Below, piece after piece: positions 32,065 through 37,326 of a stretch of DNA of 61,575 nt. Both the position numbers and the translations under genes were made by a program. The notes beneath the pieces are model-generated. The model was not told the origin of the DNA and ran no database searches. It saw nothing but the letters and a program-made list of their open reading frames with translations. Every line of letters begins with the position of its first letter. Position 1 is the first letter of the stretch. The stretch is from Myxococcota bacterium (lineage in GTDB: Bacteria > Myxococcota > XYA12-FULL-58-9 > JABJBS01), in contig JAYZAY010000044.1 in NCBI GenBank assembly GCA_036339465.1, forward strand, positions 1 to 61,575, given 5' to 3'.

Positions 32065-32166
32065 TTTCCTTACTTGCCTATTGAATTGCGCCCCCATAAG
32101 GGTGGTCTGAATTTATAGTGGCTATTTCCGCTATGAATGGATTTCTACCCAGGGAGAACACACAAC

Positions 32167-33429
32167 ATGTGGTTTAGAAGATTGCTCCGAGTAAGCTACG
32201 GAGTGCTCATATTCGTGCTCTTTGTACCACAATCAGCTCATGCACACTTGGGTCCTCAAGGTCAAAGAGTCTTTCTGGATGCCACAGGAAATATCAAAGG
32301 CGCATCAACTTCGATCGGGTTCATCTTTAGGATCGACGGAGAGTTGACCCTTAAGTCCCCATATAATTTCACCGGTTTCCCCCTTTGGTCTCTCATGCCA
32401 GACAGCCAACATGCGATCTCCGGCACAACCAGCGGAATCTATGAATCGACAGATTTCGGTTGTACTTGGAACCCCATTGTCGAGGCCCCACTCACAACCT
32501 ACTATGCTCATGCCAATCGTGGAAAAGAAATAATGGCCATAGGCCGAAAAGACGAAAAATACGTCATTTTCCATTCCATCGACAACGGAAAATCCTTTAA
32601 AGAAAAACCCGTTCCTCCCCTGGAAGGAAACCTCGTGGGAATTCACCACAACGAAAATCTTAAAACGACCTGGATTTTTTCTACAGACAACAACAGCATT
32701 CTCTACGGTTATGCCTTGGATGAGCACCTGAACCGGCTCGAATCCAAAGATTTAGAAATCACCATTCCACAAAACCTGGTACTCATGAACATCCCTCCCC
32801 TCATTTTAGCTGGCCAAAAACTTCTCGCCAACGCCTACGACATCTCCCAAGAATCACCCGACAGTGGCTCTGAATCAATCCCTATTCACTCGGCCATAGA
32901 AATCCCCCTAAGCAAGGAGGATGAATCCGGCACCCTGGAGGCGAAAAAGCTCTTCCATTTAGAGGGTGGAGAACGAATCATGGCCCTAACCTATGACCAA
33001 AATGCAAATATCTGGGTTTATACAAACCGAGAGGCACTCTATTATTGGACCGAAACAACCCTAAGCAAAACAATAGGAGGGCCTTATCACTGTCTAAGGA
33101 AATACCTTGATAGCGAAAATCTTTTCAGCTGTGGCTCTCCGTCCGTTGACGAAATGTTTCTCAATTTGGATTTTTCTGGAGCAGCGAAAAAGAACTTAAC
33201 CTACTCAGAAATCAAGCTAAAGGCTTGTGAAGGCCAAGAGATTCCCGACGACCCTTTCCAGCTAAAATCAACAACCCCTGCCCCAGAGCCAACCACCAAA
33301 CCTGCTATCGAGGGGGGATGCCAAACCACTCCCTGGCCCCTGGGACTACTACCTATAGGCCGTCGCCGTCGGAGAAAGGGTTTGAAAAATCCGGGTCATT
33401 TAAGAAAGATTCATCGGTCAGACTCTTAA
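32167..33429 (+). CDS. Secreted BNR/Asp-box protein with MYXO-CTERM-like tail
   Basis: Signal peptide ending AHA|H; Asp-boxes STDFGCTW and SIDNGKSF; Pro/Thr linker, GGC, short hydrophobic stretch, RRRRR. Confidence 0.65.
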   Translation: MWFRRLLRVSYGVLIFVLFVPQSAHAHLGPQGQRVFLDATGNIKGASTSIGFIFRIDGELTLKSPYNFTGFPLWSLMPDSQHAISGTTSGIYESTDFGCTWNPIVEAPLTTYYAHANRGKEIMAIGRKDEKYVIFHSIDNGKSFKEKPVPPLEGNLVGIHHNENLKTTWIFSTDNNSILYGYALDEHLNRLESKDLEITIPQNLVLMNIPPLILAGQKLLANAYDISQESPDSGSESIPIHSAIEIPLSKEDESGTLEAKKLFHLEGGERIMALTYDQNANIWVYTNREALYYWTETTLSKTIGGPYHCLRKYLDSENLFSCGSPSVDEMFLNLDFSGAAKKNLTYSEIKLKACEGQEIPDDPFQLKSTTPAPEPTTKPAIEGGCQTTPWPLGLLPIGRRRRRKGLKNPGHLRKIHRSDS

Positions 33430-34492
33430 GAAAACTCAAGACATCTTCTTTTTCCTCGGCTGTCAAAACAAATCCCGGAACAAATTGACTCTTATTGGGA
33501 TTCGTAGAACCGACGCCCTGATTTGGGCCCGTCAGAATGGTTCGCCCCCCTTGCCCATAATGATCAACAACGCCCTCTAAGGTCTCAATACTACCGTCAT
33601 GCATATAAGGCGCAGTCACCTCGATATTTCGGAGCGTTGGTGCTTTAAAGCGCCCTTTATCCGCATCGATTCCCGTCAGTTCAAAAATACCTTGATTTCC
33701 CTCTGGATAACTTCCCAGATCATCCAAATGATAGAGGCCATTGTTATGAAACGAGATCTCCTCCAAGGCTTTTCCTTGGTGGCTCACAGAATCAGAAAAA
33801 TTAAAATTTCCGTGACAATGAAAACACTCTAACCGCTCGTCAAAAAAAAGCGTCATTCCCCGTTTGGCACTCGAACTAAGAGCGGTTTGGTCACCTTGAA
33901 TGTAACGGTCATAAGGTGAATTAGAAGAAATCAAAGTTCGTTGAAAACTCGCGATTGCCTTCGTCAAATTGTCGAGCGTGAACGGATCGTCTTGTTCGGG
34001 AAATGCCTTTGGAAACAATTGCATATAGCGAGTATCGGACCGAGCCAGGGCCAACATCTCCTCTTCTTTCCCTGCCATACCCATCTCCACCGGTTGCTCA
34101 CCAAACAGAGGAACCAGCATCTGGCTTTCTAGATCTCCCAACAAATGGTTCGCCCAGGTTAATCGAGCGCTGAAAACAATATTTGTTAAACCCATGGAGC
34201 TGCGCGCAAGGACATCGCCGGTGGCGCCTACAGCCAATGCCTTACCGTCAGTAAAGGCCAATTTCTGCTGATGGCAACTACCACAAGATGTCGTACCGTT
34301 GACCGATAACCGGGTATCGTAAAAAAGATACCGTCCAAGTTCAATCTTGGACAAAGTCATGGGGTTCGATTCTGGGATCTGGGGCTGAGGAAAATGCGAG
34401 GGCAAATCAAATGCATATCTCTCTTCAGATTCCGAACAATGAACTGCCCCAAGAACGCTCAGGAGAAATAAAATGTAACGTTTGTAAGTCAT
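33353..34492 (-). CDS. mbnH: MbnH-like di-heme cytochrome c peroxidase/MauG family enzyme
   Basis: CGSCH and CFHCH heme motifs, LGRYLFYDTRLS, FKAPTLRNI..TAPYMHDGS; paired with mbnP. Confidence 0.85.
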   Translation of the reverse strand: MTYKRYILFLLSVLGAVHCSESEERYAFDLPSHFPQPQIPESNPMTLSKIELGRYLFYDTRLSVNGTTSCGSCHQQKLAFTDGKALAVGATGDVLARSSMGLTNIVFSARLTWANHLLGDLESQMLVPLFGEQPVEMGMAGKEEEMLALARSDTRYMQLFPKAFPEQDDPFTLDNLTKAIASFQRTLISSNSPYDRYIQGDQTALSSSAKRGMTLFFDERLECFHCHGNFNFSDSVSHQGKALEEISFHNNGLYHLDDLGSYPEGNQGIFELTGIDADKGRFKAPTLRNIEVTAPYMHDGSIETLEGVVDHYGQGGRTILTGPNQGVGSTNPNKSQFVPGFVLTAEEKEDVLSFLKSLTDESFLNDPDFSNPFSDGDGL

Positions 34493-34497
34493 ATCAA

Positions 34498-35289
34498 CTA
34501 CTTCACATAAAATAGACCGTCTGCACCCTTATGCCCCTCATTCAGGCCTAAGACATCAAATATTGGGTCACAATACCTACTCCCAGGATCTCCCATACAG
34601 GCAATAGAATCATCTTCAACAGCAAAATCCATGTTACTCAAGAGAACATTGAGATCTATCACCACTGAATCCCCAAGCATAAAATCAGAGAGAAGAAATT
34701 CTGGTCGGTTTGGAGAAGTGCAACTGTGGATCGCACCAATGGTTCCCTGACACCCCACACTTCCCAAATGGAAGAAAAAATCCTTATCTCCGACGGTAGC
34801 ATCGAGACGCAAGAACTTGTACCCACCTTGCCAACTCCAAAACATAGAAGAAAGATTCAAAGGGGATTGGGCAGTGGCAACATTGGCATGATTTAAATCG
34901 AAAGGAACACCCAATTTGAATTTAAGCCCCTTGTAGTTGCCATCAGGAATGTGGCCAAACACCTCCGCACGCATCTCAGAAGTTCCATTTGTGCAGTCTT
35001 CATAATCCAAAAGAGCAACCTCGCCATTCTGCCAAATTCCATCATCGACCAATTCTATTTCAACCTCGGCTCCAGAATCAGAAATTAGGCGAAGTTCGTG
35101 TAGGTAGAAGCGAAAATCGGTCGCCGTAAAATCCGAGGAAGAGATTCCCACTCCCTCCACCCGCTCACCACAGCGAAAGGTTTGGTCGGCAAAGTTCGTC
35201 TCAAACGTGATCGTAACGGGTTCGTCCCCATCACATCCAGCCACAGAAAAGAGCAAAGCCCAATAACTTATTGCTAACAGCCGCATCAT
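34498..35289 (-). CDS. mbnP: MbnP family copper-binding lipoprotein
   Basis: Lipobox VAGC, DFRFY, LGVPFDLNH, MFWSWQGGYKFLR (WxW), HLGSVGC. Confidence 0.85.
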   Translation of the reverse strand: MMRLLAISYWALLFSVAGCDGDEPVTITFETNFADQTFRCGERVEGVGISSSDFTATDFRFYLHELRLISDSGAEVEIELVDDGIWQNGEVALLDYEDCTNGTSEMRAEVFGHIPDGNYKGLKFKLGVPFDLNHANVATAQSPLNLSSMFWSWQGGYKFLRLDATVGDKDFFFHLGSVGCQGTIGAIHSCTSPNRPEFLLSDFMLGDSVVIDLNVLLSNMDFAVEDDSIACMGDPGSRYCDPIFDVLGLNEGHKGADGLFYVK

Positions 35290-35718
35290 AACCCATCCAT
35301 TTCAAACAACCTCACCCAAGAAAACCGTCATTATCCGTACGTTTCATGATTTAGGCGCACAAACAACTGAGGGGCAAACACACAGACAAATTGGCCCGTG
35401 GTCTGTCTATCCCCGTGGGTTTTAACGGCGCTACCGAAAGCAACACCCAAGTGGCCCTCGACACCATAAAATCAATCGCAAACCCACACGCCTCTTCGGA
35501 ATCGTCGACCGAAAACGCTCTGCCATCATTCACACCACCTGCAATAAAACGCTCCGCATGGTGCTTCGAGGCCGAATCGGGAGAGCCTAATATCCCTGGC
35601 ACCTTGGCCTTGCACCAACGTCGAAGTTCAAGAAGTAACGGAAAATCCTCGTGCCATCATGGATGACTCTCGTCATTTCCATAGACATTCTAAAGACAAC
35701 CGGGCATCAACCTAAGCT

Positions 35719-36492
35719 ATGAGCCCACTCTTTACCCCTATTGATAAAAAAAGGATGAACGAAAAGCTCGTTGCGCCGGATACGGTTGAATACGGGGGAT
35801 TCTGCTCTCAATGCAACATCGCCCATACTCTGAAAAATGATGCCCTAAGCCATCAGCTACTTAAAGAAGTCGTTTCTGAGATAGCCAACCCAAAACACCC
35901 TGATCATCCAGGAGAAATGAAGACCATTGGCGTCCTGCTTGCGCAAAAATCAGCCCACAACCAACTGGGTTATCTAAAAGCATTTTCCGGAAGCCTTCAT
36001 CAAGGGTGGAACCGCGAAGGATGGTGCCCGACTCCCGCCAAACTCGAAGAATTTGAGGCCGACCGACCCACCATCGAGGCTGAAATCGGCACCCTAACTC
36101 TTAGGGTAAAAGAAATGCGAAGCCAAGAAAAGCAGTGCACAGAAGAGTATCGACTGTTAAAAGAAGAACGGGCCAATATCTCCCGTGCCCTCACCCAACG
36201 GATCCACCGGGCATATGCCTTCGGGAATTTTCAAAGGCAACACGCTCAAATGGTGAACATCTATCTCAATCACACCGGAAAACGACCACCCACGGGCACC
36301 GGCGAATGTGCGGCACCCAAATTAATTCAGAGCGCCATAAAATTAGATTTAAAACCCATCTCAATATGTGAAGCAGTTTATCAACCTTCCAAGGGTGGTA
36401 AACATACATTATCAGCACCAACAGAAGCTTGCTCTGAACGTTGCTACCCCATTCTAGGATTTATGCTATGCGGCCTAAACGGCGCCCAATGA
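35719..36492 (+). CDS. Stand-alone homolog of the N-terminal (deaminase-like) domain of long RluA/TrcP proteins
   Basis: GVLL...GYLKAFSG, PPTGTGECAAPKL, AC...C.PILGFML; extra N-terminal CSQC..AH; coupled to rluA. Confidence 0.7.
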   Translation: MSPLFTPIDKKRMNEKLVAPDTVEYGGFCSQCNIAHTLKNDALSHQLLKEVVSEIANPKHPDHPGEMKTIGVLLAQKSAHNQLGYLKAFSGSLHQGWNREGWCPTPAKLEEFEADRPTIEAEIGTLTLRVKEMRSQEKQCTEEYRLLKEERANISRALTQRIHRAYAFGNFQRQHAQMVNIYLNHTGKRPPTGTGECAAPKLIQSAIKLDLKPISICEAVYQPSKGGKHTLSAPTEACSERCYPILGFMLCGLNGAQ

Positions 36493-37175
36493 TTGGCTTT
36501 AAGCCACCGAACATGAGACATGTCCCCCTTCCTATCGTGGCCAAAGGCGATGATTACGTGGTCGTCAATAAACCCCCTGACCTTTTGTCGGTGCCGGGAA
36601 AAAACCCCGATTTAAGCGATTGTGTAGCCAATCGAGTCAGGCAGGCCTTTCCAGAAGCTACCGGCCCATTGATTGCACACCGTCTCGACATGGCAACCTC
36701 AGGCCTCTTAGTGCTTGGTCTCACGCCTGCCGCCCAGCGACATCTCTCCATGCAATTTGAAGCCCGCCAGGTATTCAAACGTTATGAAGCCGTCGTGGAA
36801 GGACTGCTCGAAGAAGAAACTGGCCTCATTGAATTGCCCCTACGACTCGATTTTTATCAACGCCCCCTACAAATCTACGACCCCATCCACGGAAAGCGCT
36901 CTGAAACCAAATGGGAATTGATAAAACATCAGGAAGACGCCACCCATCTAAACCTTTTCCCCATCACAGGTAGAACCCATCAGCTAAGGGTCCACATGGC
37001 CCACCGATTAGGACTCAACGCCCCTATTTTGGGAGATCGACTCTACGGTGATCAGCAGAAAGCGAAACGATTAATGCTTCATGCAGCCGAAATTCACTTT
37101 CACGAGCCAAGCACTGAGCAACGCGTGGAATTTAAGGTCGCGCCCTCCTTTATAACGCCAACGACTCCACCATAA
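36489..37175 (+). CDS. rluA: RluA-family pseudouridine synthase
   Basis: VNKP..LLSVPG, HRLDMATSG (catalytic Asp), TGRTHQLRVH, PILGD.LYG; ATG 36489 overlaps the upstream TGA. Confidence 0.93.
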   Translation: MIGFKPPNMRHVPLPIVAKGDDYVVVNKPPDLLSVPGKNPDLSDCVANRVRQAFPEATGPLIAHRLDMATSGLLVLGLTPAAQRHLSMQFEARQVFKRYEAVVEGLLEEETGLIELPLRLDFYQRPLQIYDPIHGKRSETKWELIKHQEDATHLNLFPITGRTHQLRVHMAHRLGLNAPILGDRLYGDQQKAKRLMLHAAEIHFHEPSTEQRVEFKVAPSFITPTTPP

Positions 37176-37326
37176 AAGTGCTCTGGGCACCTCTCGGCTT
37201 TTCAATTGGCGCAGACTAAGTGCTCAAAAAATACTTTCCAGCCGGTGCAGCCGTCATGTAAAACCGGGCCCCAACCCACCTTAAAAGAGCGGGTTCCATC
37301 CAAACAAGACTATAAATGAGGAATAC

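Follow-up and report, generated by a model that had tools for sequence, protein, structure and literature searches.

The window analysed here, a stretch of 61,575 nucleotides (nt) from contig JAYZAY010000044.1 of a Myxococcota bacterium (GenBank assembly GCA_036339465.1), contains an overlapping gene pair that probably constitutes a self-contained bicistron for a naturally split TrcP-type editor, predicted to convert a tRNA cytidine into pseudouridine. The first gene, open reading frame (ORF) A (35719..36492, plus strand), encodes a stand-alone TrcP-type cytidine-deaminase-like protein of 257 amino acids (aa). The second, ORF B (36489..37175, plus strand), encodes an RluA-type pseudouridine synthase of 228 aa, counted from ATG 36489. 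The system to which the pair is compared, TrcP (VCA0104) of Vibrio cholerae, edits C32 of tRNA-Tyr to pseudouridine (psi32) (PMC9553926). Our interpretation is built on homology, the conserved catalytic residues, a genuine split and the conserved coupling of the two genes; from these we infer zinc binding, RNA deamination, the substrate and the cooperation between the two proteins.

Assignment of ORF A to the TrcP deaminase family

ORF A gave no match over threshold in Pfam or NCBIfam, and a sequence search against PDB chains returned only coiled-coil noise (E 0.26-0.32). The relatives recovered by database searches numbered 119 in the range of 141-450 aa, most of them ~250-aa 'hypothetical proteins', and 174 in the range of 451-2000 aa (best E 1.5e-21). 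PF00849 is present in all 120 of the long relatives listed, and ORF A aligns with the N-terminal regions of these RluA-fused proteins, whose hosts include Nostoc, Picosynechococcus, Microcoleus, Sphingobacterium, Bacteroidales and others.

The connection to TrcP itself is provided by the protein P0064 (WP_028576555.1), which ORF A matches at E 1.1e-18. The same accession is found at E 7e-19 in Supplementary Data 7 of the TrcP paper, a BLAST list for TrcP residues 1-339 that also includes Sphingobacterium RluA-family proteins (E about 1e-96 to 1e-99) and 'hypothetical proteins' of Desulfobulbus, Desulfovibrio and Desulfomicrobium (E 1e-16 to 1e-25) (PMC9553926). Bacteroides, Nostoc, Synechococcus and Myxococcus are named in that paper as hosts of TrcP homologues (PMC9553926). 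Because WP_028576555.1 matches both ORF A and the TrcP N-terminal domain (NTD), ORF A is homologous to the latter, and its membership in the TrcP N-terminal deaminase family is supported by a sequence chain that is indirect but closed. The long RluA fusions and the WP_028576555.1 link are both in line with the first-pass annotation, which had recognised the upstream ORF as the deaminase domain of TrcP.

A profile of the family, searched against 1.84 billion cluster representatives, recovered 1,752 of them at E≤1e-3, 1,246 at E≤1e-10 and 737 at E≤1e-30; a family of this size, like the relatives recovered above, puts ORF A far beyond chance. The best 150 representatives comprise 80 proteins that stop within 60 residues past CxxxC, 39 fusions, 25 fragments or variants without this motif and 6 proteins of other kinds. 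One stand-alone homologue of ORF A, P0100, comes from a eukaryotic transcriptome assembly (EukProt TRINITY contig) and is most likely bacterial contamination.

Catalytic site and predicted fold of ORF A

The motifs quoted in the first-pass annotation are all present in ORF A. GVLL is located at residue 71, GYLKAFSG at 84 and PPTGTGECAAPKL at 190, and the sequences AC238SERC242YPILGFML (residues 237-250) and C29SQC32...H36 were also found. The catalytic core is encoded by 36307..36471 (plus strand), which contains the codons for C197 (in GECAAPKL), E218 and the C238-x3-C242 pair, together with C251, a candidate fourth ligand of a second zinc site.

C197, E218, C238 and C242 are invariant in all 22 split and fused sequences of alignment A1 and in all 79 stand-alone sequences of alignment A2, with E218 lying 21 residues past C197, so that the proposed zinc-binding cysteines hold up on alignment. 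Their spacing is 21/20/4, compared with 21/21/4 for C282/E303/C324/C328 of TrcP; ORF A is one residue short in the second interval, and the residue mapping is based on the spacing and the fused homologues. In TrcP, the three cysteines (C282, C324 and C328) and the glutamate (E303) are each needed for editing, and zinc is held by the protein (PMC9553926). Moreover, of the 54 positions with 90% or higher conservation in 78 stand-alone relatives, ORF A retains 42.

An AlphaFold2 model of ORF A, computed from a 79-sequence alignment, has a mean predicted local distance difference test score (pLDDT) of 90.8 and a predicted template-modelling score (pTM) of 0.89. The modelled protein is composed of an N-terminal beta-hairpin carrying the CxxC motif (strands 24-29 and 34-39), a mixed alpha/beta body and a two-helix hairpin (helices 116-135 and 142-164), and the zinc cysteines are located at the starts of helices 198-208 and 242-249. 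When this model was compared with known structures for a deaminase-like fold of the blasticidin-S deaminase (BSD) type, Foldseek gave no match at E≤0.001, and the VIA-align rows span only the hairpin, which dominated each search.

The two-helix hairpin (residues 108-165; 36040..36213, plus strand) carries an invariant R151 and a near-invariant S155. It replaces the long helical domain of TrcP, which occupies residues 115-249, and the helical insert of ORF A is thus indeed much shorter, as had been proposed. Across the family, the insert length is bimodal, the KAFSG and PTGTG motifs being separated by about 80-100 or 160-230 residues. The hairpin of ORF A appears, by this comparison, to be a shortened form of the TrcP helical tRNA-binding domain, with a putative role in tRNA binding.

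A zinc-knuckle-like motif, C29-x2-C32-x3-H36, is located on the N-terminal beta-hairpin (35803..35826, plus strand). This motif, noted earlier as an extra feature relative to TrcP, is real and conserved, since C29, C32 and H36 are invariant in 79 of 79 stand-alone sequences; C251 is invariant in the same set. Among 226 family proteins possessing both core motifs, CxxC..H and a cysteine at the position of C251 occur together in 94 and are both absent from 118, while the cysteine occurs alone in 13 (mostly N-terminally short gene calls) and CxxC..H alone in a single protein. The cluster tracks the short hairpin and is missing from 110 of 111 long-insert fusions, these associations being clade-level correlations rather than independent events. 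Because CxxC..H and C251 co-occur, the simplest reading is a structural zinc: C29, C32, H36 and C251 probably form a second site of the CCHC type in the short-hairpin subfamily.

The conservation of the active site bears on the idea that ORF A is a catalytically dead, tRNA-binding accessory subunit, which redirects RluA to a new tRNA as the fused TrcP NTD did. A chimeric TrcP-NTD-RluA protein gained activity on U32 of tRNA-Tyr (PMC9553926), and ORF A is divergent, with a long branch and 12 of the 54 conserved positions changed. Nevertheless, all four catalytic and zinc residues are invariant, ORF A included, and tRNA-Tyr is encoded with C32 and not T32, so a retargeted RluA would find no uridine at this position unless the cytidine were deaminated. 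A dead subunit is therefore very improbable in our judgement.

ORF B is an intact RluA-type gene

The claim that the downstream partner is an intact RluA is borne out by a match to PF00849 (E 7.7e-28; 98.1 bits against a cut-off of 26.8) and by the HRLD catalytic motif, whose aspartate D67 (codon 36687-36689) is invariant in 40 of 40 aligned partner RluAs. The best PDB match is Escherichia coli RluA (2i82, E 5.4e-40, residues 14-218), the synthase of psi32 in tRNA and psi746 in 23S rRNA. On NF007543, the NCBIfam equivalog model of RluA, ORF B scores 149.3 bits, below the cut-off of 286 and thus short of the equivalog level. The genome contains five PF00849 genes. ORF B scores 149 bits on the RluA model, three RluA-subfamily paralogues score 111, 91 and 85, and the fifth gene (L084) has no match to this model at E≤1e-10. 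No separate housekeeping RluA was seen among the PF00849 genes of this genome, which is 92.8% complete.

The split between ORF A and ORF B is genuine

ORF A ends with TGA 36490-36492, and ATG 36489-36491 lies in the RluA frame, forming an ATGA stop/start overlap at 36489..36492 (plus strand) exactly as first described. The stretch occurs in marine and seawater metagenomes, with part of it present in 20 runs from 10 studies. Contigs of three DNA runs from three studies (X1, X2 and X4), one of which is possibly the window's own source, span positions 36480-36500 with 0 inserted or missing letters. The contigs of X2 (record 10, 35748-36698) and X4 (record 14, 36399-36623) are identical to the window, and that of X1 (record 4, 36288-36893) carries two substitutions, A36489G and G36491C.

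Read by hand, the X1 substitutions convert the TGA of ORF A into TCA and ATG 36489 of ORF B into GTC. ORF A becomes longer by 8 codons and reaches TGA 36514-36516, which overlaps ATG 36513-36515 within a second ATGA in the frame of ORF B (36513..36516, plus strand). The junction is shifted by 24 nt, two overlapping genes are kept and the frames are not fused. This variant, known from one contig at a depth of 6.4, looks like a compensated shift that retains the coupling.

Fused forms exist in the same phylum (genomes G025, G029 and G034, with two copies in G029), and the split could accordingly be viewed as an artefact or as a fused TrcP-like gene broken recently by a pseudogenising frameshift. 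We find this hardly credible: the junction is free of indels in the three DNA assemblies, the stop/start overlap is clean, the two ORFs are intact and retain their conserved active sites, and the same arrangement recurs in 42 of 80 related loci. The frameshift artefact was rejected on the contigs crossing the junction without an indel. The split is genuine and not an assembly error, as the first-pass annotation had favoured, and ORF A, with its own stop codon at 36490-36492 and a frame different from that of ORF B, is a separate polypeptide.

The start codons of both genes are not fixed and are less certain than the overlap alone implies. The database gene call for ORF A (P0001) has 245 aa, implying the alternative start ATG 35755. 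For ORF B, translation could begin at any of three in-frame ATGs, 36468 (preceded at 8 nt by AGGA), 36489 or 36513, and the conserved RluA sequence starts only at residue 14, numbered from ATG 36489. In addition, contigs from a metatranscriptome run, identical to the window, cover 35638-35788 and 35992-36252; they hint at transcription of the ORF A region, DNA carry-over being possible.

Split, lone and fused loci

The survey of related genomes for split versus fused forms, suggested in the first-pass annotation, was run as a pattern scan with one genome per species. It yielded 599 stretches, 593 of which were confirmed, and the best 80 loci were kept and classified by script. RluA lies directly downstream of the deaminase gene in 42 loci (split), no RluA match is present within up to 3 kb on each side in 23 (lone), and both modules are joined in 8 (fused); another 5 have less than 700 nt of downstream DNA and 2 run off the contig. 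The distance from the stop of A to the nearest in-frame start of B is -26 to +12 nt in 41 of the 42 split loci (no start was called in L054), and 18 of the 42 have a 4-nt overlap (14 ATGA, 3 GTGA and 1 TTGA). The fused loci are hosted by Verrucomicrobiota, Kiritimatiellota, Omnitrophota and Treponemataceae.

A homologue of the deaminase was found in 10 of 41 related genomes, the window's own genome (G000) included. Within the window's own family, G001 has a lone gene, G003 has no RluA in ~1.5 kb downstream, and G002 and G005 are cut by contig ends. The loci of G017 (same order) and G040 are split, and those of G025, G029 and G034 are fused.

A Pfam search of 42 flanking ORFs at 22 lone loci (L086 of G001 and 21 of the 23 classified above) revealed no conserved partner beside the lone genes. 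The neighbours are lineage-specific, including glycosyltransferase 9, GreA, RecQ, GNAT, YaeQ and others. A RecQ helicase gene adjoins the lone deaminase gene in L086, L030 and L031, which may be a lineage accident or a link. In L031, a locus of a Desulfobulbaceae metagenome-assembled genome, the segment right after the lone deaminase gene (L031:3620-3739) has a weak match to the C-terminal part of RluA only (E 1.2e-6), and this remnant may represent a decayed partner gene.

A quick maximum-likelihood tree was calculated from 88 rows. These were the window, the 73 loci that could be classified, 8 long fusions truncated behind their deaminase region and 6 loci from relatives; L089, L091, L092 and the 7 loci without a class were excluded. 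On this tree, the architecture label requires 16 changes or more, the lowest possible number being 3. As so many changes are needed, fusion, fission or separation appears to have occurred repeatedly, the root not being inferred and fusion and fission not being told apart. The grouping of ORF A with the split genes from G017 and G040 is weak (82), and the exact place of ORF A is unsure.

The mean identity of ORF A to the other 39 pairs is 28% (45% among the others themselves), and that of ORF B is 46% (58% among the others). The A-minus-B identity gap of -17 falls inside the spread of the other pairs (-14, standard deviation 3.9). Because B is similarly divergent, the sequences indicate that A and B diverged together and that A alone has not decayed. 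Accelerated evolution of ORF A alone was considered and rejected, B being equally divergent.

Proposed editing pathway and alternatives

In the pathway that we favour, ORF A would act as a compact zinc cytidine deaminase with a catalytic site formed by C197, C238, C242 and E218. Its short basic alpha-hairpin would stand in for the long helical tRNA-binding domain of TrcP, and C29, C32, H36 and C251 would provide the second zinc site, probably structural. Ribosomes finishing A would start B at the stop/start overlap, and both proteins would be made together. Using its hairpin and body, ORF A would bind a tRNA with a gene-encoded C32, for which tRNA-Tyr(GUA) is a candidate by analogy, and would deaminate C32 to U32; ORF B would then isomerise U32 to pseudouridine. 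The tRNA-Tyr(GTA) gene of this genome has C32 (loop CTGTAAA), and the isolated TrcP NTD makes U32 unaided (PMC9553926). The tight coupling wherever RluA adjoins the deaminase gene, together with the repeated fusion of both modules, argues for a functional partnership of A and B.

Several observations weigh against this pathway. When the NTD and the C-terminal domain (CTD) of TrcP were provided as separate proteins, the CTD did not pseudouridylate U32 (PMC9553926). As the TrcP halves fail in trans, the two proteins of a split system would have to associate non-covalently, or the partner RluA would have to accept the tRNA on its own. The AlphaFold2 model of the natural short fusion P0129 (pLDDT 92.6, pTM 0.66) has no confident fixed interface between its domains; the prediction of an A-B complex, with each protein given as an alignment, scored 0.00 in both runs and, being without controls, says nothing either way. 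ORF B, the best RluA match in the genome, may simply be the housekeeping RluA, and the end branch of ORF A is very long (3.28 versus a median of 0.4). C32 is encoded in 18 of the 35 tRNA genes here, which leaves the substrate not pinned down. Furthermore, C32 is present in 30 of 30 tRNA-Tyr genes recovered from the 41 related genomes, irrespective of whether a deaminase homologue was found, so the comparison of position 32 in tRNA-Tyr cannot discriminate. The 23 lone loci, and G001 of the window's own family, add to this: since they exist, the deaminase needs no adjacent RluA.

The lone loci also suggest a different interpretation, in which ORF A is an autonomous deaminase independent of B, converting C to U in tRNA or other RNA or acting on a nucleoside-like substrate. 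ORF B would then be the cell's usual RluA, responsible for psi32 of several tRNAs and for psi746 of 23S rRNA, and the adjacency of the genes would reflect a shared theme or regulation rather than a complex or an obligatory pathway of two steps. G001 and probably G003 indicate that the window's own family contains deaminase genes without RluA, no conserved neighbour accompanies the lone genes, and B is the best match to the RluA model in the genome. Moreover, 80 family representatives among the best 150 extend no further than 60 residues past CxxxC, and the TrcP NTD alone performs the C-to-U step, the NTD and CTD in trans leaving the reaction incomplete (PMC9553926). What speaks against independence is the coupling itself. 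The stop-to-start gap stays within -26 to +12 nt in all but one of the 42 split loci, with a 4-nt overlap in 18, both modules have been fused repeatedly (at least 16 architecture changes on the unrooted tree), and the X1 strain variant preserves an ATGA junction. We regard an autonomous ORF A as rather unlikely, and the split TrcP-type editor as the probable function of the pair.

A wider reading concerns the family as a whole and is put forward tentatively. Stand-alone short-hairpin TrcP-type proteins, compact at ~250 aa, could be autonomous C-to-U editors of RNA and make up a widespread family that has escaped annotation. They would work alone or as non-covalent partners of RluA, on substrates that need not be tRNA-Tyr, with the second CCHC zinc site in place of the long helical tether. 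This reading is based on the absence of a Pfam model, the 1,246 representatives at E≤1e-10 and the finding that about a third of the sampled loci are RluA-less. If true, bacterial C-to-U RNA editing would be far commoner than the single Vibrio case, and such proteins would be a natural answer to the failure of the TrcP halves to cooperate in trans.

Genomic surroundings

ORF A and ORF B form a co-oriented, isolated pair. Upstream, on the minus strand and divergent from it (33353-35289), are an MbnP-family gene (PF20243, E 2.1e-40) and a di-haem cytochrome c peroxidase/MauG-type gene (PF03150, E 4.4e-47), which we take to be an MbnP/MbnH-like pair tied to copper handling. A 430-aa ORF on the plus strand (32137-33429) has a signal-peptide-like start and a C-terminal end ...EGGCQTTPWPLGLLPIGRRRRRKG that looks like a C-terminal sorting signal, presumably of the MYXO-CTERM kind, a candidate name. 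Downstream of ORF B lies infA, in convergent orientation.

A promoter scan found no sigma-70-like site upstream of ORF A; it gave a single site elsewhere in the region, compared with 2.6 expected by chance. A weak terminator-like hairpin is located 8 nt past the stop of ORF B (37183..37197, plus strand), with a 5-pair stem followed by CTTTTCAATT. The region contains 4 terminator-like sites against 3.2 expected by chance, which makes this hairpin weak evidence. Elsewhere in the genome, a tRNA-SeC gene (anticodon TCA) is found at G000:C85:45750-45847, and because this tRNA is encoded, the organism probably uses selenocysteine.

Comparison with known systems

To our knowledge, no bacterial C-to-U (C-to-psi) RNA editor other than TrcP has been described. 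In a 2025 survey, trcP is referred to as 'so far reported as Vibrio-specific' (PMC12588516), and according to the TrcP paper every homologue has both NTD and CTD (PMC9553926), although stand-alone proteins are included in its own Supplementary Data 7. A full-text literature search led to the TrcP paper, one ADAT review, a 2025 map of V. cholerae tRNA and a few brief mentions, with no description of a split or stand-alone TrcP form in the portions of the sources it reached. The split form of TrcP is natural, ancient and common in bacteria. The natural split and RluA-less forms challenge the claims that both halves always occur together and that they fail in trans, and they provide small, separately expressible deaminases for studying substrate hand-over. 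Hundreds of 'hypothetical proteins' thereby become candidate RNA editors. Cultured carriers are available for both arrangements, split in Desulfobulbus alkaliphilus DSM 24258 and Desulfogranum japonicum DSM 18378 and lone in the isolates Maridesulfovibrio sp. FT414 and Pedobacter sp. N36a, and are directly testable.

TrcP and ORF A share a common deaminase family, an active site of three cysteines and a glutamate with near-equal spacing, a helical insertion that divides the deaminase domain in two, and an RluA-type synthase as partner. They differ in that TrcP is a single 570-aa chain, whereas the window pair consists of two polypeptides, and in that the helical insert has ~58 residues in ORF A compared with 135 in TrcP. 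The C29/C32/H36/C251 cluster of ORF A is absent from all but one of the 111 long-insert fusions examined, and the identity between ORF A and the long fused TrcP relatives is about 30-40% over the conserved blocks.

ORF B has the HRLD motif and other conserved blocks in common with E. coli RluA (2i82). Unlike the latter, it is translationally coupled to a deaminase gene and lies below the NF007543 cut-off.

The short fused TrcP-like proteins of Kiritimatiellota, Verrucomicrobiota, Omnitrophota and Treponemataceae (for example P0151, P0129, L026 and L048) have a short hairpin like that of ORF A, with the RluA domain directly following, and the CxxC..H and C251 cluster is present in 6 of 12 short fusions. 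Their two domains are joined by linkers ranging from almost nothing to ~35 residues, whereas the window has a stop codon at the linker position.

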